NCBI RefSeq assembly: GCF_044704955.1
Contig: NC_091997.1
Location: 62,434,001-62,498,000, forward strand
From: Pristiophorus japonicus
Lineage: Eukaryota
Length of the DNA stretch: 64,000 nucleotides
Reading direction: 5' to 3'
Below are positions 32,300 to 63,597 of this stretch, piece after piece. A program made the translations under genes and the position numbers. Under the pieces are notes generated by a model. The model was not told the origin of the DNA, did not search any database, and saw only the letters and a program-made list of their open reading frames with translations. Every line of letters begins with the position of its first letter. The first letter of the stretch is position 1.

Positions 32300-32317
32300 G
32301 TCAGTGCAAGACGTTGT

Positions 32318-36135: not shown

Positions 36136-36794
36136 TTAAATCAGCAAGGTCCTGCACTCGATTTCTAGTCAGCTGGGAGACGGATGGAGGGGAACCACAT
36201 TGTGCCTCAGTACTCCTGGTAAGGGGGAAATCAAGCACCACTGCCCTGTCACCCCTGCTGGAAAATACCTGTTTATGGACATCCATTGAGGACAGGATCA
36301 CACTCTGCTGTGATGCCCCCCGTGGTTGGATAGCTCATCATCTAGGCTCACACATGAGGAATGGCCATCTGGGTGCCTGTACTACTGTAGCCAGCGAGAG
36401 TTGGGGACTTCAGGAGAGGAGGGGCAAAAACTTGTCGGACAAAACTGGTAAAATAATAAGCAGACATTCCCCTCGGTGCGGGAGTGTAATCGAGAACTCC
36501 AGACTCTTATTGTGGAACTTCAGTGGCACCAAAACCTAATCTCAAAGGCTCGGTGTTTCCTCTGACTTTTTACTTTCTTCTTTGTGTAGAGGATTGACTT
36601 GCTGTTTGCTGCTTATGACCCTACACACACGGCCCCAAGGGCAGCTTTATTCCTGCAGCCCACAGAGCTCCAGATCTCTGATACTGAATTGTGCACAGCA
36701 CGAAGATCAGTCACCTGCAGAATCCGAGGACAGGTCACTGAGTACTTCACACCACTGGGTCCCTCCTCCTGAGACCCCAACACTGGGCCCCTCA

Positions 36795-39700
36795 CATAGA
36801 AAATAGGAGCAGTAGTAGGCCCTTCGAGCCTGCACCGCCATTCAATATGATCATGGCTGATCATAAGAACATAAGAATTAGGAACAGGAGTAGGCCATCT
36901 AGCCCCTCGAGCCTGCTCCGCCATTCAATAAGATCATGGATGATCTGGCCGTGGACTCAGCTCCACTTACCCGCCCGCTCCCCATAACCCTTAATTCCCT
37001 TATTGGTTAAAAATCTATCTATCTGTGACTTGAATACATTCAATGAGCTAGCCTCAACTGCTTCCTTGGGCAGAGAATTCCACAGATTCACAACCCTTTG
37101 GGAGAAGAAATTCCTTCTCAACTGGGTTTTAAATTGGCTCCCCCGTATTTTGAGGCTGTGTCCCCTAGTTCTAGTCTCCCCGACCAGTGGAAACAACCTT
37201 TCCGCCTCTATCTTGTCTATCCCTTTCATTATTTTAAATGTTTCTATAAGATCACCCCTCATCCTTCTGAACTCCAACGAGTAAAGACCCAGTCTACTTA
37301 ATCTATCATCATAAGGTAACCCCCTCATCTCCGGAATCAGCCTAGTGAATCGTCTCTGTACCCGCTCCAAAGGCAGTATATCCTTCCTTAAGTAAGGTGA
37401 CCAAAACTGCACGCAGTACTCCAGGTGCGGCCTTACCAATACCCTATACAGTTGCAGCAGGACCTCCCTGCTTTTGTACTCCATCCCTCTCGCAATGAAG
37501 GCCAACATTCCATTCGCCTTCCTGATTACCTGCTGCACTTGCAAACTAATTTTTTGGGATTCATGCACAAGGACCCCCAGGTCCCTCTGCATCTCAGCAT
37601 GTTGTAATTTCTCCCCATTCAAATAATATTCCCTTTACTGTTTTTTTTCCCAAGGTGGATGACCTCACACTTTCCGACATTGTATTCCATCTGCCAAACC
37701 TTAGCCCACTCGCTTAATCTATCTAAATCTCTTTGTAGCCTCTCTCTGTCCTCTACACAACCTGCTTTCCCACTAATCTTTGTGTCATCTGCAAATTTTG
37801 TTACACTACACTCTGTCCCCTCTTCCAGGTCATCTATGTATATTGTAAACAGTTGTGGTCCCAGCACCGATCCCTGTGGCACACCACTAACCACCGATTT
37901 TAAACCCGAAAAGGACCCATTTATCCCGACTCTCTGCTTTCTGTTCGCCAGCCAATTCTCGATCCATGCTAATACATTTCCTCTGACTCCGCGTACCTTT
38001 ATCTTCTGCAGTAACCTTTTGTGTGGCACCTTATCGAATGCCTTTTGGAAAAACTAAATACACCACATCCATCGGTACACCTCTATCCACCATGCTCGTT
38101 ATATCCTCAAAGAATTCCAGTAAATTAGTTAAACATGATTTCCCCTTCATGAATCCATGTTGCGTCTGCTTGATTGCACTATTCCTATCTGGATGTCCCG
38201 CTATTTCTTCCTTAATGATAGCTTCAAGCATTTTCCCCACTACAGATGTTAAACTAACCGGCCTATAGTTACCTGCCTTTTGTCTGCCCCCTTTTTTAAA
38301 CAGAGGCATTACATTAGCTGCTTTCCAATCCGCTGGTACCTCCCCAGAGTCCAGAGAATTTTGGTAGATTATAACGAATGCATCTGCTATAACTTCCGCC
38401 ATCTCTTTTAATACCCTGGGATGCATTTCATCAGGACCAGGGGACTTGTCTACCTTGAGTCTCATTAACCTGTCCAGCACTACCCCCCCCTAGTGATAGT
38501 GATTGTCCCAAGGTCCTCCCTTCCCACATTCCTGTGACCAGCAATTTTTGGCATGGCTTTTGTGTCTTCCACTGTGAAGACCGAAGCAAAATAATTGTTT
38601 AAAGTCTCAGCAATTTCCACATTTCCCATTATTAAATCCCCCTTCTCATCTTCTAAGGGACCAACATTTACTTTAGTCACTCTTTTCCGTTTTATATATG
38701 TGTAAAAGCTTTTACTATCCGTTTTTATGTTTTGCGCAAGTTTACCTTCGTAATCTATCTTTCCTTTCTTTATTGCTTTTTTTAGTCATTCTTTGCTGTT
38801 GTTTAAAATTTTCCCAATCTTCTAGTTTCCCACTAACCTTGGCCACCTTATACGCATTGGTTTTTAATTTGATACTCTCCTTTATTTCCTTGGTTATCCA
38901 CGGCTGGTTATCCCTTCTCTTACCACCCTTTTTCACTGGAATATATTTTTGTTGCGCACTATGAAAGAGCTCCTTAAAAGTCCTCCACTGTTCCTCAATT
39001 GTGCCACCGTTTAGTCTGTTTCCAGTCTACTTTAGCCAACTCTGCTCTCATCCCACTGTAGTCCCCTTTGTTTAAGCATAGTACGCTCGTTTCTGACACT
39101 ACTTCCTCACCCTCAATCTGTATTACAAATTCAACCACACTGTGATCACTCATTCCGAGAGGATCTTTTACTAGGAGATCGTTTATTTTTCCTTTCTCAT
39201 TACACAGGACCGGATCTAAGATAGCTTGCTCCCTTGTAGGTTCTGTACATACTGTTCTAAGAAACAATCCTGTATGCGCATTCTATGAATTCCTCCTCCA
39301 GGCTACCCCGTGCGATTTGAGTTGACCAATCAATATGTAGGTTAAAATCCCCCATGACTACTGCCGTTCCTTTTTCACATGCCTCCATTATTCCCTTGAT
39401 AATTGCCCGCCCCACCGTGAAGTTATTATTTGGGGGCCTATAAACTACGCCCACCACTGACTTTTTCCCCTTACTATCTCTAATCTCCACCCACAATGAT
39501 TCAACATTTTGTTCATTAGAGCCAATATCATCTCTCACAACTGCCCTGATAGCATCCTTTATTAACAGAGCGACCCCACCTCCTTTCCCTTCTTGTCTAT
39601 CTTTCCGAATTGTCAGATACCCCTGTATGTTTAATTCCCAGTCTTGGCCACCCTGTAACCATGTTCCTGTAATGGCCATCAAATCATACCCATTTGTAAT

Positions 39701-40895
39701 GATTTGTGCCGTCAACTCATTTACTTTATTTCGAATGCTGCGTGCGTTTAGGTAGAGTGTTTTAATCCTAGTTTTTAAACCATGATTTTTAGTTTTGACC
39801 CCTCCTGCAGCCCCTTTATATTCAGTGGCCCTTTTTCTTTTTTGCCTTGGGTTTCTCTGCCCTCATCTCCTTTCTGTCTTTTGCTTTTGTCTCCTTTTTG
39901 TTTCCCTCTGTCTCCCTGCATTGGTTCCCATCCCCCTGCCATATTAGTTTAACTCCTCCCCAACAGCACTAGCAAACACTCTCCCTAGGAAATTGGTTCC
40001 GGTCCTGTCCAGGTGCAGATCGTCCGGTTTGTACTGGTCCCACCTCCCCCAGAACCTGTTCCAATTTAGCTCCTAGCTCCTTAAATTCGTCTCGTAGGAC
40101 CTTATCCCTTTTTCTAACCTATGTCGTTGGTACCAATGCGCACCACGACAACTGGCTGTTCTCCCTCCCTTTTTAGAATGTCCTGCACCCGTTCCGAGAC
40201 ATCCTTGACCCTTGCACCAGGGAGGCAACATACCATCCTGGAGTCTCGGTTGCGGCCGCAGAAACGCCTATCTATTCCCCTTACAATCGAATCCCCGATC
40301 ACTATTGCTCTCCCACTCTTTTTCCTGCCCTCCTGTGCAGCAGATCCTCTATCTCAACACCATATTCCTACTTTCTCCCCAGACCCCTTGATGCCTTTTG
40401 TGTCTAGAAATCTATCTATCTCCCTCTTAAATATATTCAGTGACTTGGCCTCCACAGCCTTCTGTGGTAGAGAATTCTACAGGTTCACCACCCTCTGAGT
40501 GAAAGAATTTCTCCTCATCTCGATCCTAAATTTCCTACCCTGTATCCTGAGACTGTGACCCCTTGTTCTAGACTTCCCAGCCCCGGGGAAACATCCTCCC
40601 CGCATCCAGTCTATCCAACCCAGTCAGAATTTTATACGTTTCAATGAGATCCCCTCTCATTCTTCTAAACTCTAATGAATACAGGCCCAGTCGACCCTCA
40701 TACGACAGTCCTGCCATCCCAGGAATCAGTCTGGTGAACCTTCGCTGCACTCCCTCTATGGCAAGTATATCCTTTCTTAGGTAAGGAGACCGAAACTGCA
40801 CACAATACTCCAGGTGCGGTCTCACCAAGGCCCTGTATAACTGTAGTAAGTCATCCTTGCTCCTGTACTTAAATCCTCTTGCAATGAAGACCAAG
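36795..40895 (-). mobile_element. Nested CR1 LINEs: a 3.5-kb CR1 (36862-40345; SGNH-esterase ORF1 part, APE, RT) inserted into an older CR1 3' fragment (36795-36861 plus 40346-40895)
   Basis: IGDSIVRG...CCLPGARV esterase, VMGDFN endonuclease and KFADDTK RT motifs; the host tail ATCATGGCTGAT|CCTCTATCTC is split by the insertion. Confidence 0.93.
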
Positions 40896-41048
40896 TGAGA
40901 CCGAGATTGGGCCCCTCACCCTGTGAGGCCAACACCAGGCACCAAACTGTTTGTCCTCAGCTGGCAGTGGGCCAAGGTGAGAGGGAAATGCTTAAACTTT
41001 CCTGTTGATCAGGGATGAGTTTGTAACGATAGTTGTTTCTTTTGCCAG

Positions 41049-41156
41049 CCTGTGCCTGAAGTGAAGGTGGTCTCCAACCTGCCGTCCATCAGTATGGAGG
41101 AGGTGGCACCAGTGAATGTCAGTGATGCCACTCTACTGGCACCAGAAGAAGTCAAG
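41049..41156 (+). CDS. MPHOSPH10: MPHOSPH10 exon 9
   Basis: [36 protein letters not shown]; GTAAGT donor. Confidence 0.96.
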
Positions 41157-41421
41157 GTAAGTGACTAAAGAGAAAGGTAACATTAAGCCAAACAGCTAAT
41201 CAGCCCCGGCCCCCGAAGCTGCACCGTAGTGCCTTGGGATGTTTCACTATGTTAAAGGCGCTATATAAATAGAATTGTACTGGGGGAGGGCGCGATGGTA
41301 GACAGCTAAAGAGGCTGGATTGTATGAACGCTGCTTTGTTATTGCATCGGGTGACTTTATAGATGAGGTGCGAGACCTGCGGTTGGTGTTTGAGCTGTGC
41401 TGACTGGCCTGGTAATTACAG

Positions 41422-42474: not shown

Positions 42475-42624
42475 GATGAAGGGAAAGATAAACCTCTGCG
42501 CTCGTCAAAGGCCTTCTTCTCCCAGTTACAAGATCAAGTGAAAGCCGAGCTGAAAGGAGCCAAGATCGGAGCCAAGAAGCAGAACAAACACAGAGAGCTT
42601 TCAGCAAGCAAACTGAAACTTTAA
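42475..42624 (+). CDS. MPHOSPH10: MPHOSPH10 exon 11 (terminal, TAA)
   Basis: DEGKDKPLRSSKAFFSQLQDQVK...ASKLKL*; total spliced CDS 1980 bp = 659 aa. Confidence 0.95.
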   Translation, partial: DEGKDKPLRSSKAFFSQLQDQVKAELKGAKIGAKKQNKHRELSASKLKL

Positions 42625-42717
42625 GCCAGACCTCTTCACTTCCTCTACAGATTGAGCCATCTGATATATAGCAGATCATTCCAAAAACCATTCTTATTTT
42701 AAACATGGTTGTTTTCT

Positions 42718-42723
42718 AATAAA
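42718..42723 (+). terminator. MPHOSPH10 polyadenylation signal
   Basis: AATAAA about 95 bp after the stop, followed by T/GT-rich sequence. Confidence 0.7.
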
Positions 42724-43310: not shown

Positions 43311-43644
43311 GTACCTTTTTTTTGGCAGCTCGATCAGTTTGGGCAAATGCCGTTAGGAATCCTGGAAATTAATGTTTTTAATGTCTGCTTGTTCAGGAAT
43401 GTCTTCAAGAAGATTTGGAGTTATATCTTGGATGGTATTGGCTGGAGCCAGCAGCGGTGAGCCTGCAGGATACCGCCAGAAGACCCATTGGGTGGGCAGT
43501 GGGGAATCTAGTGTCTATACTGCGTCAACTAACACAATAATTACAGTCAGTCCTGTTGTGTGTTGAGGTGAGATGGGGCTCGGGCTGTGACTGCCCGCGC
43601 CGGCCTGAGGAGACTCAGGATAAACAGCAAGTCTGGGGAAAGGG

Positions 43645-44455
43645 TTGTGATTGGCGGGTCGGTGGAAGGGACGGGCTGTGATTGGCGGGTCGGTGGAAGG
43701 GACGGGCTGTGATTGGCGGGCCGGTGGAATGCGCGGGTTATGATTGGCGGGGCGGTGGAAGGCGCGGCTATGATTGGCGGGGCGGTGGAGGGGCGGGCCG
43801 GTGCAAGGCGCGGGCTATGATTGGCGGGCCGGTGGAAGGCGCGGCTGTGAGTGGAGGGGCGGGCTGTGATTGGCGGGCCGGTGCAAGGCGCGGGCTATGA
43901 TTGGCGGGGCGGTGGAAGGCGCGGCTATGATTGGCGGGGCGGTGGAAGGCGCGGCTGTGATTGGAGGGGCGGGCTGTGATTGGCGGGCCGGTGGAATGCG
44001 CGGGCTATGATTGGCGGGGCGGTGGAAGGCGCGGCTATGATTGGCGGGGCTGTGGAAGGCGCGGCTGTGATTGGAGGGGCGGGCTGTGATTGGCGGGCCG
44101 GTGCAAGGCGCGGGCTATGATTGGCGGGGCGGGCCGGTGCAAGGCGCGGGCTATGATTGGCGGGCCGGTGGAGGGGCGGGCTGGTGCAAGGCGCGGGCTA
44201 TGATTGGCGGGGCGGTGGAGGGGCGGGCCGGTGCAAGGCGCGGGCTATGATTGGCGGGCCGGTGGAAGGCGCGGCTGTGAGTGGAGGGGCGGGCTGTGAT
44301 TGGCGGGCCGGTGCAAGGCGCGGGCTATGATTGGCGGGGCGGGCCGGTGCAAGGCGCGGGCTATGATTGGCGGGCCGGTGCAAGGCGCGGGCTATGATTG
44401 GCGGGGCGGGCCGGTGCAAGGCGCGGGCTATGATTGGCGGGCCGGTGGAAGGCGC
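43645..44455 (+). promoter_or_regulatory. FAN1 promoter minisatellite: about 24 inverted CCAAT boxes interleaved with GC boxes
   Basis: ~30-bp units GATTGGCGGG(G/C)CGGTG(G/C)AAGGCGCGGGCTAT ending 15 bp before the FAN1 ATG. Confidence 0.8.
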
Positions 44456-44469
44456 CGGCTCTCCGCTCG

Positions 44470-45025
44470 ATGACTTCCCCGGACAGAAAGCGGCCGCGGG
44501 GCCGCCTCTCTCTCCGAGCCCGAAGGCGGGAATCTTCCGCCGGCCGTGGTTTCGGGGCCACAGCACCGCCCCCACGAAACTGCGGGTCCGGGGCGGCGGG
44601 TGAGCGGGGCGGCAGCTGCGGGCCCGCGGGCCGCCCGCTCTCCAAACTCTCCCGGCGGCTCTGGAGAGCGAGAGGCTGCGGGCCCGGAGCGGCCCCCGGG
44701 GACGGCCCGGAGCCCGACCCCAGCCCAGGCCCGGAGGCCGGAGAGAGGGTGAGGGATCCGGGGCCCGACCCCAGTCCAGGCCCGGAGGCCGGAGAGAGGG
44801 TGAGGGATCCAGGCCCGGAGCCCGACCCCAGTCCAGGCCCGGAAGCGGGGGATCCAGGCCCGGAGGCCGGAGAGGCGCTGGGGGCCGCGGGCCGGGACAC
44901 GGACCCAGCGCCCTATTACCTCGCGAACTTTGTGACGGTGCTGGCCGCCGTGCTCGGGAGCGAAGATAAAGAACTTTTCGATGAAGAAGACCGGGGCTGG
45001 ATTGGAACATTCCAGCAACTATCAG
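44470..45025 (+). CDS. FAN1: FAN1 (Fanconi-associated nuclease 1) coding exon 1; short N-terminus without a recognisable UBZ4
   Basis: MTSPDRKRPRGRLSL resembles the recalled human PPDKKRPRRSLS; PYYLANFVTVLAAVL...LFDEEDRGWIGTFQQLS resembles PYYLRSFLVVLKTVL...FYQLS; donor G|GTATCC, phase 1. Confidence 0.85.
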
Positions 45026-45149
45026 GTATCCCCGCTGGGAAATGGCGGCAGGCTTTGGGTCCAGAGGAACCTCTCCCCAGGCCGGAGCCCCCCCCGAGCA
45101 CCGGGGAAGCTGGTTGTTGGAGGCCCCGGGCCATGTCCTCAGGGCTGTG

Positions 45150-48100
45150 CCACCTCCAGCTGCTTCAATGACCTTCCCTCCACCATAATGTCAGAAGTGG
45201 GGATGTTTGCTGATGACTGCAGTGTTCAGTGCCATTCACAACTCCTCCGATAACGGAGCAGTCCGTGCCCGCCTGCAGCAAGACCTGAACAACATTCAGG
45301 CTTGGGCTGCTAAGTGGCAAGTAACATTCATGCCACACAAGTGCCAGGCAATGACCATCTCCAACAAGCGAGAGTCTAACCACCTCCCCTTGACATTCAG
45401 TGACATTACCATCGCCGAATCCCCCGCCATCAGCATCCTGCGGGGGGATCACCATTGACCAGAAACTTAACTGGACCAGCCACATAAATACCGTGGCAAC
45501 AAGAGCAGGTCAGAGGCTGGGTATTCTGCGGACTCCCCAAAGCCTTTCCACCATCGACAAGGCACAAGTCAGGAGTGTGATGGAATACTCTCCACTTACC
45601 TGGATGAGTGCAGCTCCAACAACACCCAAGAAACTCGACACCATCCAGGACAAAACAGCCGCTTATAAGAACATAAGAATTAGGAACAGGAGTAGGCCAT
45701 CTAGCCCCTCGAGCCTGCTCCGCCATTCAACAGCTGATCTGGCCGTGGACTCAGCTCCACTTACCCGCCCGCTCCCCATAACCCTTAATTCCCTTATTGG
45801 TTAAAAATCTATCTATCTGTGATTTAAATATATTCAATGAGCTAGCCTCAACTGCTTCCTTGGGCAGAGAATTCCACAGATTCACAACCCTCTGGGAGAA
45901 GAAATTCCTTCTCAGCTCTGTTTTAAATTGGCTCCCCCGTATTTTGAGGCTGTGCCCCCTAGTTCTAGTCTCCCCGACCAGTGGAAACAACCTCTCTGCC
46001 TCTATCTTGTCTATTCCTTTCATTATTTTAAATGTTTCTATAAGATCACCCCTCATCCTTCTGAATTCCAACGAGTAAAGACCCAGTCTACTCAATCTAT
46101 CATCATAAGGTAACTCCCTCATCTCCAGAATCAGCCTAGTGAATCGTCTCTGTACCCTCTCCAAAGCTAGTATATTCTTCCTTAAGTAAGGTGATTAAAA
46201 CTGCACGCAGTACTCCAGGTGCGGCCTCACCAATACCCTGTACAGTTGCAGCAGGACCTCCCTGCTTTTGTACTCCATCCCTCTCGCAATGAAGGCCAAC
46301 ATTCCATTCGCCTTCCTGATTATCTGCTGCACCTGCAAACTAACTTTTTGGGAATCACGCACAAGGACCCCCAGGTCCCTCTGCACCGCAGCATGTTGTA
46401 ATTTCTCCACATTCAAATAATATTCCCTTTTACTGTTTTTTTTTTTCCCCCAAGGTGGATGACCTCACACTTTCCGACATTGTATTTCATCTGCCATCCT
46501 TAGACCATTCGCTTAACCTATCTAAATCTCTCTGCAGCCTCTCTGTGTCCTCTACACAACCCGCTTTCCCACTAATCTTTGTGTCATCTGCAAATTTTGT
46601 TACACTACACTCTGTCCCCTCTTCCAGGTCATCTATGTATATTGTAAACAGTTGTGGTCCCAGCACCGATCCCTGTGGCACACCACTAACCACCAATTTC
46701 CAACCCGAAAAGGACCCATTTATTCCGACTCTCTGCTTTCTGTTAGCCAGCCAATTCTCGATCCATGCTAATACATTTCCTCTGACTCCGCGTACCTTTA
46801 TCTTCTGCAGTAACCTTTTGTGTGGCACCTTATCGAATGCCTTCTGAAAATCTAAATACACCACATCCATCGGTACACCTCTATCCACCATGCTCGTTAT
46901 AGCTTCAAAGAATTCCATTAAATTAGTTAAACATGATTTCCCCTTCATGAATCCATGCTGAGTCTCCTTGATTGCACTATTCCTATCTAGATGTCCTGCT
47001 ATTTCTTCCTTAATGATAGTTTCAAGCATTTTCCCCACTACAGATGTTAAACTAACCAGCCTATAGTTAGTTACCTGCCTTTTGTCTGCCCCCTTTTTTA
47101 CAAAGCGGCGTTACATTAGCTGCTTTCCAATCTGCTGGTACCTCCCCAGAGTCCAGAGAATTTTGGTAGATTATAACGAATGCATCTGCTATAACTTCCG
47201 CCATCTCTTTTAATACCCTGGGACTTGTCTACCTTGAGTCCCGTTAGCCTGTCCAGCACTACCCCCCTAGTGATAGTGATTGTCTCAAGGTCCTCCCTTC
47301 CCACATTCCTGTGACCAGCAATTTCTGGCATGGTTTCTGTGTCTTCCACTGTGAAGACCGAAGCAAAATAATTGTTTAAGGTCTCAGCCATTTCCCATTA
47401 TTAAATCCCCCTTCTCATCTAAGGGACCAACATTTACTTTAGTCACTCTTTTCCGTTTTATATATCTGTAAAAGCTTTTACTATCCGTTTTTATGTTTTG
47501 CGCAAGTTTACCTTTGTAATCTATCTTTCCTTTCTTTATTGCTTTCTTAGTCATTCTTTGCTGTCGTTTAAAATTTTCCCAATCTTCTAGTTTCCCACTA
47601 ACCGTGGCCACCTTATACGCATTGGTTTTTAATTTGATCCTCTCCTTTATTTACTTGGTTATCCACGGCTGGTCATCCCTTCTCTTACCGCCCTTTTTCA
47701 CTGGAATATATTTTTGTTGAGCACTATGAAAGAGCTCCTTAAAAGTCCTCCACTGTTCCTCAATTGTGCCACCGTTTAGTCTGTGTTCCCAGTCTACTTT
47801 AGCCAACTCTGCCCTCATCCCACTGTAGTCCCCTTTGTTTAAGCATAGTACGCTCGTTTGAGACACTACTTCCTCACCCTCAATCTGTATTACAAATTCT
47901 ACCATACTGTGATCACTCATTCCAAGAGGATCTTTTACTAGGAGATCGTTTATTATTCCTGTCTCATTACACAGGACCAGATCTAAGATAGCTTGCTCCC
48001 TTGTAGGTTCTGTAACATACTGCTCTAAGAAACAATCCCATATGCATTCTATGAATTCCTCCTCCAGGCTACCCCGTGCGATTTGATTTGACCAATCGAT

Positions 48101-49040
48101 ATGTAGGTTAAAATCCCCCATGATTACTGCCGTTCCTTTTTCACATGCCTCCATTATGCCCCACCGTGAAGTTATTATTTGGGGGCCGATAAACTTTGCC
48201 CAACAGTGACTTTTTCCCCTTACTATCTCTAATCTCCACCCACAATGATTCAACATTTTGTTCATTAGAGCCAATATCGTCTCTCACAACTGCCCTGATA
48301 TCATCCTTTATTAACAGAGCTACCCCACCTCCTTTCCCTTCTTGTCTATCTTTCCGAATCGTCAGATACCCCTGTATGTTTAATTCCCAGTCTTGGCCAC
48401 CCTGCAACCACGTTTCTGTAATGACCACCAAATCATACCCATTTGTAATGATTTGTGCCATCAACTCATTTACTTTATTTCGAATGCTGCGTGCATTTAG
48501 GTAGAGTGTTTTAATACTAGTTTTTAAACCATGATTTTTAGTTTTGACCCCTCCTGCAGCCCCTTTATATTCAGTGGCCCTTTTTGTTTTTTGCCTTGGG
48601 TTTCTCTGCCCTCCACTTTTACTCATCATCTTTCTGTCTTTTTGGCACCCCATCCGTTTGATTGGCACCCCATCCCCCACCTTAAACATTCACTCCCTCC
48701 ACCACCAGCACACCATGGCTGCAGTATATGCTATTCACAAGATGCACTGCAGCATCTCCCAAACCCGCAACCTCTACCACCTAGAAGGACAAGGGCAGCA
48801 GGCGCATGGGAACACCACCACCTGCAAATGCCCCTCCAAGTCACACACCATTCTGACTTGGAAATATATCGCTGTTACTTCATCGTCGCTGGGTCAAACT
48901 CCTGGAACTCCCTAACAGCACTGTGGGAGCACCTTGGCTACACGGAGGGTCACCACCACCTTCCCGAGGGCAATTGGAGAAGGACAATAAATGCTAGCCT
49001 TGTTGGTGACGCTCACGTCCCATGAACAAAAGAAACAAAA
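45150..49040. mobile_element. Nested LINEs in FAN1 intron 1: plus-strand LINE 3' part (45150-45664 plus ~48641-49040) interrupted by a minus-strand CR1 (45665-48640; APE plus RT)
   Basis: Host sequence GCCGCTT|GATTGGCACCCC is split; CR1 peptides LYLNARSIRNK, ITETWL and [13 protein letters not shown]. Confidence 0.93.
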
Positions 49041-49613
49041 ACAATAGAGTCGGCTGAGCCACGCTGAATTTGCAATCGACATCAGTGAATCTAACCTGGG
49101 TGCTAGTTAGCCTCAGTACCGCAGGGTACAGGGATCCCACCTTCCAGTCACTTCGTCTGGAAAATGCACCTGTGGATATCGAGTGAGAGCCATTTGCTAA
49201 GATGCATCCCACGATTAAATATTGTGGTGACACTTTTAACACATGAAATTTTTTTCATCCAATTTACTTTTGAAAGTTACTATTGAATCTGCTTCCACCC
49301 ACCGTTTCATTCCATATCACAACTCGTTGTGTAAAGAAATTCTCATCTTCCCTCTGGTTTTTGCTAACTATATTAAATCTGTGTCCTCTGGTTACTGACC
49401 CTCTTGCCACTGGAAAGTTTTTCTTTATTTACTGCATTAAAACCCCTCAATTTTGAACACCTCTATTGGACACATTCTAAATGGTAACCTAACCATTTTA
49501 TAAAGGTTTAGCATAAGTTCTGTGCCATATGCTTTTTTAACAGCCTTGTCCTGTCCCCAGTTTGGGTCTGTTAGTCTCGTAGTAGTTACTGGATGCTCCC
49601 CTCTTGTCTTCAG

Positions 49614-49754
49614 CTGCCGGCCAGAAGCTCTACGTGAGACTCTTTCAACGGAAGCTGAATTGGCTAAAAGTGAGCAGGCTGGATTATGCTGAGATTGGCC
49701 TGGATCTGACCCCCACCATCGAAGAGCTGAGTCTCGCTGGCTTGTTACAAACAG
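49614..49754 (+). CDS. FAN1: FAN1 exon 2
   Basis: [19 protein letters not shown]...AGLLQT. Confidence 0.96.
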
Positions 49755-50465
49755 GTATAGGAATCCCTCATCCAGGGCGGGTTTTAATCAGAACATTGAA
49801 GCTTGCTGCATTACTGATTTTAAAATCCTTCTCTTCATCTTCAGCTCTCCCCGCATCCTCGTCCCCCGCTCTCCCCGTGCCATTGTTCCCCGCTATCCCA
49901 CGCCACCCACTCTCCCCGCATCCTCGTCCCCCGCTCTCCCCGTGCCATTGTTCCCTGCTATCCTCTCACTCTCCACTCTCCCCATGGCTTTGTTCCCCCC
50001 CGCTCTCCCCATGGCCTCGCCCCCGCCCTTTCCAGCCCTACACCTGCTACTCTACGATTCTTTGACTGGCCTGTTATACCGCCCCAGCCTCGGCCCTCCA
50101 TTGGATCAGGGTCTTCAGCCACCTTGGCCACTCTGCAACTCTCTCTCCAAACCCTGCCCCTCGCCTTTTTAAAAACCTTCTCAAATACCATCATTTCCAC
50201 CAAGCTTTTGGTAAACTCGCCCCCATTGTCTCATTGCTTGCTTCTTTATTCCTTTTATGAGTATCTCCCCCAAAAGTGAAGGGTTTCGGGGGCTTTCACT
50301 GTTCTGGATGCTGAGTAGATGTACCTGGGGCACAGGATGTTTTAAAGTACACCTGAGTCATCCAGCATTGGGTACGTCCGCGATAGTGTGGGGTCATGGG
50401 TCAGTGGATACCGTTCGCCAGGGCCCTGTGTGTTTATTCTCTGACGATGTCCTTTCCCCCCACAG

Positions 50466-50664
50466 GGTCGGAACTGTGCGACATCTCCGAGGCCCTGGAC
50501 CTGCTGTCAGCCCCTGAGCTCAAACTATTGGCTAAAACCTTCCACCTGCAACCCCGGGGTCAGAGGGCGGAGATCCTGGGGTCCCTGCTCCAGTTGGGCA
50601 AGCAGAAATCGATCTTCAGTAGTGACCGGAACCCATCGAGCCCCGGCTCCGCCATCCTCAACAG
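50466..50664 (+). CDS. FAN1: FAN1 exon 3 (SAP domain)
   Basis: SELCDISEALDLLSAPELKLLAKTFHL...; phase-2 donor AG|GTTCTT (weak). Confidence 0.88.
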
Positions 50665-51134
50665 GTTCTTCAACAGGCGCCACTTAACCTTCGGAGCGGA
50701 GTGCACACTACCTGCGGGAAGGGTATAGGGGGGGAAGGGAGCGGCAACGAGGGGAGAGAAGGGGCAGCGAGGGTGGGGAAGAGGCAGAGGGGGGCAGCGA
50801 GGGTGGGGAAGGAGCAGTGAGGGTGGGGCAGCACAGGTGGGGTGTGGAATACCTACTCGGGGAGGGATTGCAAGCCATCTAGCACGATGGACCTAGAGGA
50901 CGTTCCTCGTCCTTTGAGGCGAATAGCATAGAGACTTTGAAGGGGAAGCTGGATAAACAAGATGCTGGAGAAAGGAGTAGAGGGATATGCTGATAAGGTG
51001 AGATGAAGGCGGGAGGAGACTCGTGTGGACATAAACACGGCATGGACCAGTTGTGCCAAATGACCTCTTTCAGTGCTGTGAATTCTCTAATTCTGTGTGT
51101 TTACCAGCCTGCGTTTAATGGTATGTGTTGTCAG

Positions 51135-51368
51135 GGTGAAGGAGCTGGTCGGACGGTGTGTGAAAGTCACTGCGCCAGCCCGTGCAGTGTTCTCACGGGT
51201 TTTGCTACTTTTCTCTCTGACTGAGTCGACGGATGAAGAGGAGGCGGCCAGTGCTGGACAGAGTCAGCTGTCCACAGTGCTCATGGTCAACATGGGACAC
51301 GTCGTCTTCCCCAGTTACAGCGTGCTGAGGGAGACCAAAATCTTTCGACACAGGGACGACCTACTCAG
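51135..51368 (+). CDS. FAN1: FAN1 exon 4
   Basis: RAVFSRVLLLFSLTESTDEEEAASAGQSQLSTVLMVNMG...IFRHRDDLLR. Confidence 0.96.
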
Positions 51369-51436
51369 GTGACAACACACTCTGATCACTTCAATAAATA
51401 GGGCAGGCACAGAGTTAACAGGATAAATCCACCATT

Positions 51437-52147
51437 CGGTGTGGGGGAGGGGGGCCCGGTGTGGGACTAAGCCCTGGGGAGCACTGCCCAGTGTGGGACT
51501 GAGCCCCAGGGTGCAGGGCCTGCTGTGGGACGGAGCCCCGGGGAGGGGGTCCCCGGTGTGGGACTGAGCCCCAGGGAGCAGGGCCCTGTGTGGGACCGAG
51601 CCCCGGGGAGGGGGTCCCCGGTGTGGGACTGAGCCCCAGGGAGGGGGGCCCGGTGTGGGACTGAGCTCCGGGGAGCGGGGCCCTGTGTGGGACTGAGCCC
51701 CGGGGAGCACTCCCCAGTGTGGGACTGAGCCCCAGGGAGGGGGTCCCGGTGTGGGACTGAGCCCCGGGGAGAGGGTCCCCGGTGTGGGACTGAGCTCCGG
51801 GGAGCAGGGCCCGGTGTGGGACCGAGCCCCGGGGAGGGGGTCCCCGGTGTGGGACTGAGCCCCAGGGAGGGGGGCCCGGTGTGGGACTGAGCTCCGGGGA
51901 GCGGGGCCCTGTGTGGGACTGAGCCCCGGGGAGCACTCCCCAGTGTGGGACTGAGCCCCAGGGAGGGGGTCCCGGTGTGGGACTGAGCCCCAGGGAGCAG
52001 GGCCCTGTGTGGGACCGAGCCCCGGGGAGAGGGTCCCCGGTGTGGGACTGAGCTCCGGGGAGCAGGGCCCAGTGTGGGACTGAGCCCCAGGGAGGGGGTC
52101 CCCGGTGTGGGGCTGAGCTCCGGGGAGCAGGGCCCTGTGTGGGACTT
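51437..52147. repeat. 31/32-bp G-rich minisatellite in FAN1 intron 4
   Basis: Unit GGTGTGGGACTGAGCCCCGGGGAGGGGGTCCC with variants. Confidence 0.95.
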
Positions 52148-52403
52148 GATGGAAAGTCAATGTATGAGCAGATAAATTAATGTATAATGGGTGGATATAT
52201 GAGTAGATTGTTTGAAGAAGAGGTGGGTGATGCTCCCTAACACGATTACACAGCATTAGGCTGTTTGTGCAATTTTGATTTCTGAAGCAGAAATGCTGTC
52301 ATTTTAAATGAAACGACGGGCTATTTGTTTCATAGTGGGTGTTGACATGTGTTCCCCGACGGGTGAATGTTCCTTGATGGGTGAATTGTGTGTTCCCGGA
52401 CAG

Positions 52404-52535
52404 ATACGACGCAGCCGTGCATTCTCTGGCCGAGGTGGGGAATGCCATGAGCAATGGGACCTGGAGTGATGCCCTTCAGATTTATAAAAATGCCAGAGAG
52501 AAGTGGAGCTCGCTGGAGAACAGCAGTGACGTCAG
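52404..52535 (+). CDS. FAN1: FAN1 exon 5
   Basis: YDAAVHSLAEVGNAMSNGTWSDALQIYKNAREKW; phases match neighbouring exons. Confidence 0.92.
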
Positions 52536-52972
52536 GTAATGTGAGGGATGCACAGCATGCTCACAACCATCCGTGTCGGGTGGTAACCCTCATGGGGGAA
52601 TCTAGAACCAGGGGGCACAGTCTCAGAACAAGGGGTCGCCTATTTAAAACAGAAATGAGGAGGAATTTCTGCTCTCCATTTCTTATGTTAATGGGGAAAA
52701 GACCCCCACCAGGCAGCACTGCCCCCCCCCCCCCCCGGGCAATATCCATTGAGGAGCTTTGTGCAGCTTTGTATTTAGAGGCACTTTGTTAATCCCATAA
52801 CTGGGAGGCTGGTGACAGCGACTGCGGGAACATACATTTCAGGGAACTGGGGAACACCCGTTCCTGTCTCCCTGGGAAAGCTCAGATGGGGGGTTGGGAG
52901 AAGTGGGTCCAGGAGAGAATGGACCTGAATAACAGCACTGTGCCTTTATATGAAGTCTTGAATGTAATTATT

Positions 52973-54248
52973 AAGAACATAAGAAATAGGAACAGGAGTA
53001 GGCTAAACGGCCCCTTGAGCCTGCTCCGCCATTTAATACGATCATGGCTGATCCGATCATGGACTCGGACTCAGTTTCACTTTCCTGTCCGCTCCCCATA
53101 ATGCCTTATCCCCTTATCTTTTAAGAAATTGTCTATTTCTGTCTTAAATTTATTCAATGCCACAGCTCTCTGAGGCAGCGAATTCCACATATTACAACCC
53201 TCAGAGAAGAAATTCCTTCTCATCTGTTTTAAATGGGCGATCCTTTATTCTAAGATCATGCCCCCTAGTTCTAGTCTCCCCCATCAGTGGAAACACCCTT
53301 TCTGCATCCACCTTGTCAAGCCCCCTCATAATCTTATACGTTTCGATAAGATCACCTCTCATTCTTCTGAATTCCAATGAGTAGAGGCCCAACCTACTCA
53401 ACCTTTCCTCATAAGTCAACCCCCTCATCCCCGGAATCAACCGAGTGAACCTTCTCTGAACTGCCTCCAAAGCAAATATATCCTTTCGTAAATATGGAAA
53501 CCAAAACTGCACGCAGTACTCCAGGTGTGGCCTCACCAATACCTTATATAGCTGTAGCAAGACATCCTTGCTTTTATACTCCATACCCTTTGCAATAAAG
53601 GCCAAGATACCATTGGCCTTTCTGATCACTTGCTGTACCTGCATACTATCCTTGTGTTTCATGCACAAGTGCCCCCAGATCCTGCTGTACTACAGCACTT
53701 TGCAATCTTTCTCAATTTAAATAATAACTTGCTCTTTGATTTTTTTCTGCCAAAGTGCATGACCTCACACTTTCCAACATTATACTCCATCTGCCAAATT
53801 TTTGCCCACTCACTTAGCTTGTCTATGTCCTTTTGCAGATTTTTTGTGTCTTCCTCACACATTGCTTTTCCTCCCATCTTTGTATCATCAGCAAACTTGG
53901 CTACGTTACACTCGGTCCTTTCTTCCAAGTCGTTAATATGGATTGTAAATAGTTGGGGTCCCAGCACTGATCCCTGCGGCACCCCACTAGTTACAGGTTG
54001 CCAACCAGAGAATGAACCATTTATCCCGACTCTGTTCTCTGTTAGTTAGCCAATCCTCTATCCCCAACCCTGTGAACTTTTATCTTGTTCAGTAACCTTT
54101 TATGTGGCACCTTGTCAAATGCCTTCTGGAAGTTCAAATACACCACATCCACTGGTTCCCCTTAATCCACCCTGTTCGTTACATCCTCAAAGAACTCCAG
54201 TAAATTTGTCAAACATGACTTCCCTTCATAAATCCATGCTGACTGCCT
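52973..54248 (-). mobile_element. 5'-truncated CR1 LINE
   Basis: [18 protein letters not shown] and LVRPHLEYCVQFW motifs; (ATAAGAAC)n tail. Confidence 0.93.
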
Positions 54249-54744
54249 GACCCAGGGTGTTTCACAGAGACACAAAGTGATAATAAAAGAAGAATTGGAG
54301 AGGTGACCAACGGCATGTCCATGTTGGGTATTCAGGCATTTAAGGAGGGCGTTCCAGAATATTGAGCTAAGACAGCTGGAGGTTGTGCTTCTCAAAGTGG
54401 GGTGAACGGGGGGTGGGGGTAAGGCCAGAGTTGGAAGAGTGGAGCGTGAGTGCTGGTGTGAGGCTGGGGGAGGTTGCAGAGGGGGGCAGGGTGGATCTGA
54501 AGCCATAGTTAATAAGGATCTTGAATTCAATGTGGAAATTGGCAAGGATGCAGGAAAGGAGAACATGACTTAGTGCGTGATCACATGTAAGCAGCAGAGC
54601 TTTGGACAAGTTGGAGTTTGTGTAGGATGGAGTTGAGGAAGCTGAAGAATGAATGAGGGTTTCAGCAGTGGTGGGTGTTCAGCGGGTGGCAATAGGCAGT
54701 TTTACAAGATTGGGTATGAGCTATGGAACAATTTTAACAGAGGA

Positions 54745-54905
54745 GCAGAGTAAAGCGTTCTCTACACTGTCCCATCAAACACTCCCAGGGCGTATAGCAC
54801 GGGTTAGATACAGAGTAAAGCTCCCTCTACACTGTCCCATCAAACACTCCCAGGGCAGGTACAGCACGGGTTAGATACAGAGTAAAGCTCCCTCTACACT
54901 GTCCT
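54745..54905. repeat. Satellite B, short array (2-3 units)
   Basis: Same unit as 1162-2335. Confidence 0.9.
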
Positions 54906-55170
54906 AACAATGTTCCTCATTAATCCTGCCTACTGCCCCAGTGAGTAATGTGAGCGCTGTCACACTGTACCTGTGCTGTGGACTCGGGTCCCGCAGGGAC
55001 AGGTTGAGACTGGCCAAGGTCTGTAACAGCGAGCAGAGAGATGGGTTTGAGCCCAGGACTCTGAGGGCAACGTCCGATCCCCAACACCCTAGTCGCACTA
55101 AACAAACATTACCTGGCCAGTGTGTTTCTTTTTCATTTTAGAATGGGTGACTAATATTGGTTAATTTTAG

Positions 55171-55279
55171 GTTCTGTCGGGAGCTCCCGGTGTACCTGCG
55201 ATGTTTCACTGCGGGCTGGATCTACACGCGCATCCGATTCCGTGGGGTTGAAGTTTTACAGCGGCTGCACATGTACCAG
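55171..55279 (+). CDS. FAN1: FAN1 exon 6
   Basis: [33 protein letters not shown]. Confidence 0.96.
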
Positions 55280-55312
55280 GTAAAAAATGCAAAATTACAC
55301 AAGAAAAGCGCA

Positions 55313-55550
55313 GTGACCCGGCAACTGGTTATAGTGATCTGGTGACCCGGTGCCAGTTAGTGATCCGGTGCGAGGGCTCGGTGCCAGTTAGTGATCCGAT
55401 GACCCGGTGCGAGGGCTCGGTGCCAGTTAGTGATCTGGTGACCCGGTGCGAGGGCTTGGTGCCAGTTAGTGACCCGGTGCGAGGGCTCGGTGCCAATTAG
55501 TGACCCGGTGCGAGGGCTCGGTGCCAGTTAGTGATCTGGTGACCCTGTGC
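55313..55550. repeat. ~31-39-bp minisatellite
   Basis: GACCCGGTGCGAGGGCTCGGTGCCAGTTAGTGATC variants. Confidence 0.85.
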
Positions 55551-55634
55551 AGGGGTGCAAGTAGGTTGTGTTGACGAGAGGATTGAAGCTGCTGGTGTCG
55601 GATGTTAAACCCTGTCTTCGAATCTCATTCTCAG

Positions 55635-55754
55635 GAGGCGGTGGAGGAATTGCAAAGCCTTTTGGAGCAAAGCATCTTTTGTCCAGAGAGCCGTGGGCTG
55701 TGGTGGGATCGGCTGAGTCTGAATCTCCAGCAGCATCTGAAACGGCCCGATCAG
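55635..55754 (+). CDS. FAN1: FAN1 exon 7
   Basis: [40 protein letters not shown]. Confidence 0.96.
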
Positions 55755-56059
55755 GTACTGCTGACGACGAGGGCCAGTGTGGCTGCTGCTTACTGTGATG
55801 TCATTGCCGAGTCCTTATGTATTTCCGGGCATTGATCCTGATGAGGCAGGTCCCACTATGGTGATCAGTCACAGGATCTCTTTCTCTCCCCGCCCACCCC
55901 CCCCCCCGTGTCTGACACAGTGCAGGGGATCACACCCCACTACCACCGACTGCTCTGTGATCTTGATCAGGTTTGATCAATAACTAGGTCCAGGTAACCT
56001 GGTTGAAGAATGCTCACGATGGAAGCTGATTTGAACTCACTGACTCACTCCTCAGATTA

Positions 56060-57030
56060 TTCTGTTCGAGTGTTGATGTGGTGTACCTGGACTTCGAAAA
56101 GTTGTTTGATAAAGTGCCACATAATAGGCTTGCAAGCAAAGTTGAAGCTAATGGATTACAAGGGACAGTGGCAGAATGGATACGGAATTGGCTAAGTGAC
56201 GGGCAACAGAGTAGTGGTGACCAGTTGTTTTTCGGACTGGAGGAAGGTATACAGTGGGGTTCCCCAGGGGTCGGTACTGGGACCACTGCTTTTCATAATA
56301 TATATTAATGATTTAGACTTGGGTGTACAGGGCACAATTTCAAAATTTGCAGATGACAAAACTTGGAAGTATAGTGATAGACAGGCTGGTGGAATGGGTG
56401 GACATATAGCAGATAAAATTTAATGCTGAAAAGTGATACATTTTGGTAGGAAGAATGAGATAAGACAATATAAACTAACGGCTACAATTCTAAAGGGGGC
56501 ACATGAACACGGAGACCAAGGGTATATGTGCACAAATCATTGAAGGTGGCAGGGAAGGTTGAGAAAGCGGTTAAAAAAGCTTACAGGATCCTGGGCTTCA
56601 CAAATAGAGACAGAGTACAAAAGCAAGGAATTATGATGAACATTTATAAAATACTAGTTCAGCCTCAACTGGAGCATTGTATCCAATTCTGGGCCCCGCA
56701 CTTTAGGAAGGATGTGAAGGCCTTGGAGACGGTGCAGGGGAGATTTACAAGAATGGTTCCAGGGACGAGGGACTTCAGTTACATGGATAGACTGGAGAAG
56801 CTGGGATTGGTTTCCTGGAGGGGTCCAGACAGAGTCGAGAGAAACTGTTCCCATTGGCAGAAGGGTCGAGAACCAAAGGACACAGATTTAAGGTAATTGG
56901 CAGAAGAACCAAAGGCGACATGAGGAAAAACATTGCGGGAAAGGGCAGGGAAGTGGGACTAGCTGAGGTGCTCCTGCAGAGAGCCGGCACGGGCCGAACG
57001 GCCTCCTGTGCTGTGACCATTCTCTGATTC
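56060..57030 (+). mobile_element. Sense-oriented degraded CR1 LINE ending at the FAN1 exon 8 acceptor
   Basis: [27 protein letters not shown] and KFADD motifs; 3' tail GGGCCGAACGGCCTCCTGTGCTGTGACCATTCTCTGATTC. Confidence 0.88.
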
Positions 57031-57033
57031 CAG

Positions 57034-57198
57034 GCAATCGGCTGTGTGCGGGAAGGGCTGAACGATGCTCAGGTACAGACGGGACATCGCCTGGCGCTAC
57101 ACCAGCGGGCAATGCGGATACGTGACTCCCCAAGCTGCAAGAAATGGCGCCACCTTCTTCAGGATCTGCCAGTGATGGGAGTGGAAGATGTGCCGCAT
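57034..57198 (+). CDS. FAN1: FAN1 exon 8
   Basis: AIGCVREGLNDAQVQTGHRLALHQRAMRIRDSPSCKK...EDVPH; GTGAGT donor. Confidence 0.94.
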
Positions 57199-57217
57199 GT
57201 GAGTGTACCAGCAACAT

Positions 57218-57412
57218 TCACCCCGCCCGTCTAAACCTCACGTTCCTCATCACCCCGCCCGTCTAAACCTCACATTCCTCATCACCCCGCTCGTCTAAAC
57301 CTCACATTCCTCATCACCCCGCCCGTCTAAACCTCACGTTCCTCATCTCCCATCACCCCGCCCGTCTAAACCTCACATTCCTCATCACCCCGCCCGTCTA
57401 AACCTCACATTC
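57218..57412. repeat. 32-bp minisatellite (about 6 units)
   Basis: TCACCCCGCCCGTCTAAACCTCACATTCCTCA. Confidence 0.9.
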
Positions 57413-57902
57413 TTCAAGGGTCTGGTGTGGATGATTTTATTTAAATCCTTTTATTGACTGCGTTATTTCCACAAATCTGTCTCGGGTCTGACTGGGTCCA
57501 CTAACTCGCCATTGATTGTCTGGGACATCAGCAGAGCCCCCCGCTGCCTGAGGGGGGAGATTTGACCCCGTTTACCCCACTACCCCTCCTGATGCTCGCT
57601 GAGTACCTGAAAATTGAAAAGTGTCTTAAATCATTGTCATCTAATGGCCCTGATTCTATGCTGTAAAATTCTGTCATGTATATTTTCTATTTAAATGTAA
57701 TCCTATATATTGTTCTAATAGCTCCGGGGCTCAGTTCCACACCGGGCCCTGCTTTCCCACACCCTGGGCAGGGCCTTTACCCACTGAGCCAATAAAGGAG
57801 CCTCTTAATTCACCCTTTAATATATATTTCAGGATAATGGTGCCCTGGGAGCCAGGCTGCATCTGAACAGGTTTTAATTGCTGGTTTTAATTTTCTTTGT
57901 AG

Positions 57903-58056
57903 GTGACAGTGAAGGGCAGAGCCTGCCCGGGGATGGGTAATGCCTTGTTCCTGATGGAACGCACCAGTGAGGGGGAGGGGGAGTCTTGCTCCACAGTGAT
58001 CTGTTCGGTGGAGGAGGTTTCTCTGGCTCACTACCAGCGGCAAGGCTTCGATCAGG
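57903..58056 (+). CDS. FAN1: FAN1 exon 9
   Basis: [10 protein letters not shown]...[22 protein letters not shown]. Confidence 0.95.
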
Positions 58057-58135
58057 GTAATCACCAAATCAGCTCACATTGATTGCTGCTGAGGTGCGAA
58101 GACTGTGTGCAGTGATCTGTCGCTCTGTGTTTCAG

Positions 58136-58239
58136 GGATACACGGTGAAGGAGCCACCTTCTTAACGCTATTCGGACTTCTCTTCTGGGAAATCATCTTC
58201 CTGCCCGGAATCCCGGATGTTTTCCGGAATCCGTATCAG
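58136..58239 (+). CDS. FAN1: FAN1 exon 10
   Basis: [35 protein letters not shown]; follows a 79-bp intron. Confidence 0.96.
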
Positions 58240-58580
58240 GTATTTGGCTGAAGGGTTGCTTCTCCCAGACTAGGGTACGTACCTTGGGCAGGGATTGGGG
58301 GAAGCGTGTCGATTCATTCAAATGCAAAATAGATCCATTTCTTTCAGAAATTGACAGATACCATATTGGAGTAATGTCAGACATGCCGTGGGGTGAATGC
58401 TGCGTATTCGGGAGGGACAGGTAACTTTGGAGCCCTGCTCCCAAAGCTCTCCAGCACTGGGTCTGTTGTATACTCATTGATCGAGATTGTTGGGATCCGA
58501 GGAGAACCAGGGTCTTTTTTTAGTCCAGTGATGACTACAGTGCCCTGATAAATGTGATTAATGGTGTATTTCTGCCCCAG

Positions 58581-58775
58581 GCTTGCCCTCTGGATCTCTA
58601 CACCGAGTGTTTCTATCAGCACCGGAGGGAGCCCATTGAATCGAGGCTTGAGATCCTGCAAGATGCCCCCACAGGAACCCTCCACACACTCATCGCCAAC
58701 GTGTGGAACAGTCACAAAGGCACAGCAGCCACGTTAGTCAACTGGGAGATCTTCAGCTCTCTTCAGCAGGCCCAG
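58581..58775 (+). CDS. FAN1: FAN1 exon 11
   Basis: ACPLDLYTECFYQHRREPIESRL...LVNWEIFSSLQQAQ. Confidence 0.96.
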
Positions 58776-58819
58776 GTACATAGCTTCTACCCCAGTATTA
58801 TAGTGATAGACCTGTACCC

Positions 58820-62920: not shown

Positions 62921-63049
62921 AGCCTGGTGAGCTGCCTGGGTGGTCTGTTTCTGAGTGGCGTTTGTAGGATTCTGGCCAAGAACTTGAGGCACAGCCGTGG
63001 GGGCCTCCCTGATCTGGTGGTGTGGAGCAGCCACAGCCTCCAATACAAG
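62921..63049 (+). CDS. FAN1: FAN1 exon 12 (VRR-NUC, catalytic PD)
   Basis: [35 protein letters not shown]. Confidence 0.97.
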
Positions 63050-63459: not shown

Positions 63460-63597
63460 CTGGTAGAAGTGAAAGGTCCGAGTGACCGACTCTCCCACAA
63501 GCAGACAGTGTGGTTGGATCAGCTGCGGAGACTTGGGGCCGATGCGGAGGTTTGCCACGTCAGTGCGGTCGGTGCACGGAGTCACCGGCTCAGCTAA
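63460..63597 (+). CDS. FAN1: FAN1 exon 13 (VRR-NUC EVK motif, stop)
   Basis: [34 protein letters not shown]...HRLS*; total spliced CDS 2376 bp = 791 aa. Confidence 0.97.

Follow-up and report, generated by a model that had tools for sequence, protein, structure and literature searches.

FAN1 of cartilaginous fishes lacks the N-terminal UBZ4 finger and SPYF box

Main

The front-end handles of human FAN1 link the nuclease to the Fanconi anaemia (FA) and mismatch-repair systems and slow repeat expansion of the Huntington's type. An initial annotation of 64,000 nucleotides of the Pristiophorus japonicus genome (contig NC_091997.1, positions 62,434,001 to 62,498,000 of the forward strand; the window) proposed that one in-frame deletion had removed the UBZ4 finger and the SPYF-type MIP box from a FAN1 with an intact nuclease. 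The locus raises the question of whether these handles are truly missing, in which animals, and what kind of nuclease would remain.

According to published accounts, multicellular eukaryotes conserve the PIP box and UBZ well (PMC7990447), and the FAN1–MLH1 interaction is conserved across species (PMC13473659). Our search of the literature on FAN1 in sharks and cartilaginous fish and on vertebrate UBZ loss, with most subscription journals outside its coverage, found no report of such a loss; short chondrichthyan FAN1 proteins are already in public annotation, and it is the class-wide loss of the module that appears to be new.

Results

The window carries 13 FAN1 exons on the plus strand (44470-63597, ending in TAA) that encode 791 residues. 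They match the stored protein P0002 letter for letter, to which a query with exon 4 also leads at 100% identity under the label Pristiophorus japonicus FAN1, so the exon count, protein length and GLPDL and EVK motifs first annotated map exactly. FAN1_HTH, Fan1_SAP, FAN1_TPR and VRR_NUC follow one another in that order, each above its Pfam cut-off, and residues 132-791 align to human FAN1 (phmmer E value 2.6e-258; PDB 9GY0, chain numbering offset by 4), with D960, E975, K977, H742, R952 and K986 conserved and the catalytic residues of the PD-(D/E)xK site (D960, E975, K977) all present.

Coding exon 1 (185 codons plus 1 nt; 44470..45025, +) is one open frame over 44470-45024 with a GT donor at 45026, and its translation agrees with the order of motifs originally noted: RKRPR, APPPRNC, PLSKLSRRL, a Pro/Gly repeat and PYYL. 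The basic, NLS-like start RKRPRGRLSL (44485..44514, +) aligns as the homologue of vertebrate KRPRRSLS and is, by that resemblance, a candidate NLS. KLSRR (44644..44658, +) corresponds to the C-terminal half of the MLH1-interacting motif (MIM), with equivalents of K158-L159-S160-R161, a Pro at the L155 position, and L152 and the beta-strand absent. A coding 51-bp tandem repeat of 2.6 copies (44703..44843, +) forms a Pro/Gly/Glu linker that replaces the KEN-bearing one, and the folded core (PYYL, FAN1_HTH) starts at 44911..45025 (+), where the R377 equivalent is Ala. Exon 2 (49614..49754, +) has 141 nt, as human c.1235-1375. The SAP domain lies in exon 3 (50466..50665, +), with Lys280 (50606-50608) as the R507 equivalent and Asn298 as that of K525; exons 4-11 (51136..58775, +) encode the TPR and nuclease scaffold, where Leu479 (55698-55700) replaces R706 and H742 is retained. 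Exon 12 (62921..63049, +) holds the equivalents of R952, R955 and the catalytic D960 (GGLPDL), and exon 13 with the stop codon (63460..63597, +) those of E975, K977 and K986, the EVK motif being present. Introns 4 and 8 contain minisatellites with 32-bp units (51444-52146 and 57218-57416), and elsewhere the introns hold many LINE-like reverse-transcriptase fragments.

The human splice mutations c.1234+2 and c.1375+1 place the donors of the matching exons (PMC8201669), and residue 185 of P. japonicus FAN1 aligns with human residue 411; the first two coding intron positions are identical in the two species. Because the donors and these residues coincide, exon 1 is the homologue of human exon 2 (411 codons plus 1 nt), which carries UBZ and SPYF, and it is 226 codons shorter than its counterpart. 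Compared with human FAN1 (1017 residues; PDB 9GY0), with which it shares orthology, the four Pfam core domains, these intron positions and catalytic D960/E975/K977, the shark protein is 226 residues shorter before the core, lacks PIP, UBZ4, SPYF, the MIM beta-strand and KEN, and reads R377A, R507K, K525N and R706L at the equivalent positions.

Exon 1 has a GC content of 73% and adjoins a tandem array. Farther upstream lie Mpp10-family (MPHOSPH10) exons (26790-41162, +), followed by an open frame with an AATAAA polyadenylation signal (42475..42723, +) that we take, from its position and resemblance, to be the probable last MPHOSPH10 exon. This leaves about 1.75 kb before the FAN1 ATG for any upstream FAN1 exon. 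Nearly half of that gap is filled by the GC-rich promoter array itself (about 820 bp; 43642..44460, +), which contains 24 ATTGG (inverted CCAAT) and 16 GGGCGG motifs and ends 9 nt before the ATG; none of the 17 ATGs within 43642-44460 gives an in-frame extension of FAN1, and the 5'-most listed contig of the spliced runs described below begins at 44461. A myotubularin 3-PAP (MTMR10-type) exon lies 6 kb downstream of FAN1 on the minus strand, and the order MPHOSPH10–FAN1–MTMR10-type is that of vertebrates. The genome contains a single match to exon 4, and chondrichthyan FAN1 cores form one clade with a support of 0.998. By tree, copy number, synteny, intron positions, domains and catalytic residues, the window gene is identified as a single orthologous FAN1.

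In exon 1 we found neither UBZ4 (CxxC-x11-H-x4-C) nor SPYF/Sx(Y/F)F, an N-terminal PIP-like box or KEN. As Pfam models detect the FAN1 UBZ unreliably (best E values 0.014-0.022, for bat and paddlefish FAN1), we used a custom profile built from 65 vertebrate FAN1 rows, whose own members score at least 86.5 bits; across six frames of the whole 64-kb window its best score was -5 bits. Between 43000 and 49700, a loose CxxC-H-C pattern has a single match, which lies in a repeat of intron 1 on the minus strand, and the SxF/Y-F pattern has three, all in intron 1, in agreement with the absence from exon 1 that had been annotated.

Four sequencing runs, with data in the form of contigs, were placed on 44400-50700. 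A contig of the DNA run X1, which may be the assembly's own sample, spans 44412-44754 with zero differences from the window, and one of run X5, from another sample and study, spans 44461-44754 with one silent difference; both cross 44514-44644, where UBZ and MIP would lie, gap-free. The GT..AG joints 45025->49614 and 49754->50466 occur in X5, X6 and X7, three samples of one study that we call spliced from these joints alone, none being recorded as RNA, and are absent in X1. Since second-sample contigs span the segment and all three spliced runs join exon 1 straight to exon 2, the absence of UBZ and MIP is not an assembly error, and two of the objections that the initial annotation had foreseen, sequence collapsed out of the exon and an additional UBZ exon, become very unlikely. 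The 51-bp coding repeat is bridged by none of the listed contigs, so its copy number rests on the assembly. One X1 contig has a 15-base deletion relative to the window at 50365 (intron 2), probably the other allele.

A genome-wide search for a displaced UBZ exon, a loose first look with one 51-aa paddlefish query, gave a single match, L002 on contig C2 (G000:C2:26385558-26385659; E=2.7). It is an isolated 51-codon frame between repeats (L002:1500-1610), with NAPP and an exact UBZ-like C-C-H-C spacing. We rejected it as a displaced exon, as it scores 13.7 bits, a chance-level value, against at least 86.5, has no start or acceptor and has no other FAN1 piece in 30 kb.

To place the loss, we took one full-length model per chondrichthyan species (n=20: 11 sharks, 8 rays and skates and the chimaera Callorhinchus, P0162) and set aside models truncated at the 5' end as well as isoform duplicates (P0008, P0009, P0084, P0086, P0088, P0091, P0095, P0156, P0163, P0164, P0166-P0175, P0178, P0192 and P0193); those of this excluded set whose sequences were inspected are likewise without UBZ. 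CxxC, Sx(Y/F)F, the PIP-like box and KEN each occur before PYYL in 0 of the 20 models. Of 140 rows from other vertebrates, isoforms included, the UBZ pattern occurs in 132, an SPYF-like box in 135, a PIP-like box in 127 and KEN in 102, and the eight rows without UBZ comprise four 5'-truncated or partial models, a bird-like one cut inside the finger, two penguins and the milkfish. In an outgroup set of ten representatives, UBZ and SPYF are both found in hagfish, amphioxus, Ptychodera and Diadema FAN1, and UBZ in that of Acanthaster and Nematostella; none was seen in the Owenia protein, and the lungfish and lizard models have no usable N-terminus. Because all 20 chondrichthyans lack what 132 of 140 other rows, hagfish and amphioxus have in UBZ, the module is ancestral and disappeared on the stem of the chondrichthyans, a placement to which the chimaera contributes a single model, P0162. 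The loss of UBZ4 and SPYF is thus real, derived and found in a spliced gene; annotated as a feature of P. japonicus, it is not peculiar to this species.

Some rows outside the class deserve a separate mention. In penguin FAN1 of the Eudyptula and Eudyptes clusters (P0142, P0143) the first zinc-ligand Cys of UBZ is Arg, whereas Cys is retained in the Aptenodytes row; the ligand change may have inactivated the finger independently. The milkfish (Chanos chanos) model P0083 lacks both UBZ and SPYF. It has a MIM-like stretch close to its start and an SD(Y/F)F unit, matching Sx(Y/F)F, repeated three times in tandem; it may be 5'-truncated. Isoform X3 of lamprey FAN1 (Lethenteron reissneri, P0203) keeps the PIP-like box, SPYF and MIM with a finger that ends after one Cys, either through independent loss or as an isoform effect.

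What has stayed in the N-terminus is as informative as what has gone. A KLSRR-type motif is found in 18 of the 20 chondrichthyan models, being decayed in Scyliorhinus and absent in Narcine, and the chance of the pattern in shuffled N-termini is 0.0008-0.004 (five tested). In the register of the human MIM (n=19 chondrichthyans), L159 is kept in 19/19, S160, R161 and R162 in 18/19 each and L155, as L or I, in 11/19, whereas equivalents of L152, I150 and V147 occur in 0/19, against L152 in 131 of 137 other rows; P. japonicus keeps L159 alone of the anchors I150, L152, L155 and L159. The conserved part of the motif is mainly its basic tail and not its hydrophobic anchor. In the crystal structure of MLH1 with the peptide, the four anchors and the beta-strand are needed, the strand lifts the affinity from 33 to 0.06 µM, and the peptide is traced only to residue 160 (PMC13473659). 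A complex prediction for the shark MLH1-CTD with FAN1 residues 35-75 scored 0.06, too low to read either way.

LSL and KLSRR are 43 residues apart in P. japonicus, against 132-176 in 81 bony-vertebrate rows, and in the 16 chondrichthyan models where it is measurable the spacing between the basic start and KLSRR ranges over 29-64 residues; at the place of the 51-bp unit, other sharks and rays have tandem repeats unrelated to it. As the spacing before KLSRR shrank and the linker after it consists of unrelated tandem repeats, loss or replacement affected no fewer than two segments, one before and one after the motif, and PIP, KEN, the MIM beta-strand and L152 went as well; the single in-frame deletion initially proposed does not account for this. 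Nor is there support for APPPRNC as a trace of the human UBZ flank NAPPAKLAC, as it aligns instead with AAPPQSNSGS and AALPTGNSGS of other sharks. The NLS-like start and the SKLSR segment are both present as annotated; the latter, taken at first for a remnant, is by its distribution conserved like a selected motif and not like a decaying one. Its homology to the MIM rests on position and conservation, because a MIM profile scores the shark motifs at only -2.9 to 5.7 bits.

The partners of FAN1 look intact at the sites that we could compare. The P. japonicus genome has 29 exon matches to FANCD2, with K561 kept, and FANCL RING exons; its MLH1 keeps E669 and the S3 leucines L574, L585, L636, L639, L650 and L653 unchanged, with V647I. 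MSH3 is present, and 17 kb upstream on the same strand lies an exon that has a leading ATG, SKFF and a GT donor and that we take, by position and resemblance, to be the MSH3 first exon, probably with an intact MIP box. It had no PDB match, and a DHFR search meant to locate MSH3 gave no match. From these sequences, both the FA and the mismatch-repair partners (FANCD2 K561, FANCL RING, MLH1 E669 and probably the MSH3 MIP box) thus appear preserved. MLH1 E629 (P. japonicus site L016:1501-1665, minus strand) is G or S in 18/18 elasmobranch rows and E in 3 chimaera rows and 96 of 99 others. As a sign of co-evolution with the lost MIM strand this change is weak, being one event that postdates the chimaera split, with a partner, R145, that is Gln in 85 of 137 other rows.

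The nuclease core has also changed. D960, E975, K977, K986, R952, R679, R710 and H718 are invariant in 19/19 elasmobranchs, whereas R507 is kept in 1/19 (133 of 140 other rows), K525 in 0/19 (134 of 140), R706 in 3/19, with H, C, Y or L in 16/19 (133 of 140), and R982 in 6/19, with Q or H in 13/19 (135 of 140). Position 507 is Lys in P. japonicus, Gln in 15/19 elasmobranchs and in hagfish, and Arg in the chimaera, which also keeps K525, R706 and R982. Four of the five 5'-phosphate pocket residues are retained in P. japonicus (H742, R952, R955 and K986), R706 being Leu. In human FAN1, R507 bridges PCNA D232 and is reported as required for PCNA activation on CAG extrusions (PMC12078661), R706 is one of the five 5'-phosphate ligands and K525 lies in the dimer patch (PMC12078616). 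The intact nuclease of the initial annotation therefore holds for the active site only, since elasmobranchs have mostly lost R507, K525 and R706. FAN1 distances are 0.67 from shark to chimaera and 0.68 from shark to paddlefish, and those of MLH1, a single control gene with a bony-fish reference other than that for FAN1, 0.30 and, to gar, 0.44; read with that one gene and those differing references in mind, they suggest that the FAN1 core evolves faster.

Discussion

The FAN1 of cartilaginous fishes is probably a stand-alone, FA-parallel nuclease for cross-links and flaps under relaxed constraints from its partners, to judge from the conserved and altered residues. On our best reading, shark FAN1 would be recruited by DNA structure, uncoupled from ubiquitinated FANCD2 and PCNA and largely from MLH1. 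Comparison among species shows that on the chondrichthyan stem the N-terminal exon lost PIP, UBZ4, MIP, the beta-strand half of the MIM and KEN, leaving the basic start and KLSRR, and that elasmobranchs later lost basic contacts to PCNA (R507), in the dimer (K525) and to the 5'-phosphate (R706, often R982). The protein would still be nuclear, attach to branched or cross-linked DNA via its HTH/SAP/TPR core and cut it with the PD-(D/E)xK site. By analogy with human mutants, ubiquitinated FANCD2 or PCNA would not retain it; it would leave the S2 site of MLH1 to MSH3, because SPYF is gone, and would bind the S3 site weakly or not at all.

Several observations on the human protein bear on this reading. 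UBZ mutants lose foci and still rescue mitomycin C (MMC) sensitivity, and early recruitment to interstrand cross-links (ICLs) uses SAP (PMC7990447); SPYF is required for MLH1 binding, and SPYF mutants are MMC-resistant (PMC8424649). The uncoupling from FANCD2 may be partial, because human FAN1 associates with non-ubiquitinated FANCD2 without UBZ (PMC7990447), and some MLH1 binding may persist, because KLSRR is found in 18/20 models, L155 as L or I in 11/19 and the S3 pocket is intact. The Lys at position 507 of P. japonicus may likewise keep the PCNA contact. The retention of R507, K525 and R706 in the chimaera counts against our reading, and as human FAN1 unable to bind MLH1 was reported as ICL-hypersensitive, and toxic in one study (PMC8324060), a stand-alone FAN1 would need to escape such effects.

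We weighed three other explanations. An artefact, with UBZ and MIP hidden in collapsed sequence, a missed exon or a second gene, could draw on the high GC content of exon 1 beside a tandem array, the unbridged coding repeat and the UBZ-like frame on contig C2, but is hardly credible given that contigs of two samples cross the segment gap-free, that exon 1 is spliced directly to exon 2, that the short gap between MPHOSPH10 and the ATG has no UBZ profile match, that 20 species share one architecture, and that the frame on C2 scores far below true members, with no start, acceptor or FAN1 neighbour. It is unlikely, too, that FAN1 is rewired rather than uncoupled, with KLSRR still docking on MLH1 S3 so that the nuclease remains tied to MutL and leaves MSH3 unhindered at S2. 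The constancy of L159, S160, R161 and R162, the hydrophobic residue at 155 in 11/19, the six unchanged MLH1 leucines and the residual binding of a minimal human MIM (33 µM; PMC13473659) would fit this idea. Set against them are the disappearance of V147, I150 and L152 from 19/19 chondrichthyans where nearly all other rows keep L152, the Pro at 155 in P. japonicus, the concentration of conservation in the basic tail when the crystal peptide is traced only to 160 (PMC13473659), the absence or decay of the motif in Narcine and Scyliorhinus, and the replacement of MLH1 E629, a contact of the lost strand, in every elasmobranch row.

We regard it as quite improbable that FAN1 is instead attenuated or repurposed, drifting away from cross-link and slip-out repair, with the losses of R706, R982, K525 and R507 blunting a nuclease that is harmful without MLH1 control. 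The substitutions at R706, one of five 5'-phosphate ligands (PMC12078616), and at R982 in most elasmobranchs are in keeping with it, as are the distances of FAN1 relative to MLH1 and the relief of toxicity that nuclease or dimer mutations bring to MLH1-unbound human FAN1 (PMC8324060). The frame is open and the gene spliced, however, the catalytic residues and R952, K986, R679, R710 and H718 do not vary in 19/19, the rate comparison has one control gene and differing bony-fish references, and the chimaera, without the N-terminal module, keeps all four basic residues.

A bolder form of the stand-alone reading, which we hold to be conceivable though somewhat doubtful, is that elasmobranch FAN1 has shed all mapped regulatory contacts (ubiquitin, both PCNA and both MLH1 sites, APC/C), so that the wild type equals the combination accelerating CAG expansion in human cells, with the MSH3 MIP box and MLH1 S2 intact, and that the KLSRR tail marks a second function. 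If so, a group that includes very long-lived animals would tolerate repeat instability driven by unopposed MutS-beta and MutL or restrain it by another route, and KLSRR, kept throughout the history of the group after the MLH1-binding half was lost, would have a second, undescribed function in all vertebrate FAN1.

A class without the module that has FANCD2, FANCL, MLH1 and MSH3 offers a natural experiment on what the FAN1 UBZ is for, and on the share of protection from triplet expansion that comes from MLH1 sequestration or PCNA activation as opposed to cutting; shark FAN1 would be a ready separation-of-function reagent, and the kept KLSRR points to an unexplained role of the motif. The loss is less surprising than it might be, since in human mutants of the UBZ both cross-link repair and CAG-repeat stabilisation are already normal. 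The human C44A/C47A, SPYF, MIP/MIM and delta73-349 mutants and the Huntington's disease modifier R507H each abolish a contact missing by nature from chondrichthyan or elasmobranch FAN1 (PMC8424649, PMC8324060, PMC12078661). In these fishes, unlike in those mutants, the changes occur together, are tolerated and have become fixed throughout a vertebrate class, and delta73-349 keeps the UBZ that the shark protein lacks.

The PIP- and UBZ-less Fan1 of Schizosaccharomyces pombe, which repairs cross-links without FA machinery (PMC7990447), and bacterial FAN1 (PDB 4R89, 5Y7G) resemble the shark protein as nuclease cores without UBZ. This likeness, drawn in the initial annotation for the fungal and bacterial forms, extends to the core and not to its setting: the shark state is a secondary loss within vertebrates, with a core about 60% identical to that of bony-vertebrate FAN1 and a MIM fragment left, in a host that, unlike fission yeast, still has FANCD2 with K561 and FANCL. 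The model nearest to a core-only FAN1 is that of Narcine bancroftii (P0087), whose N-terminus has only 43 residues and no KLSRR.
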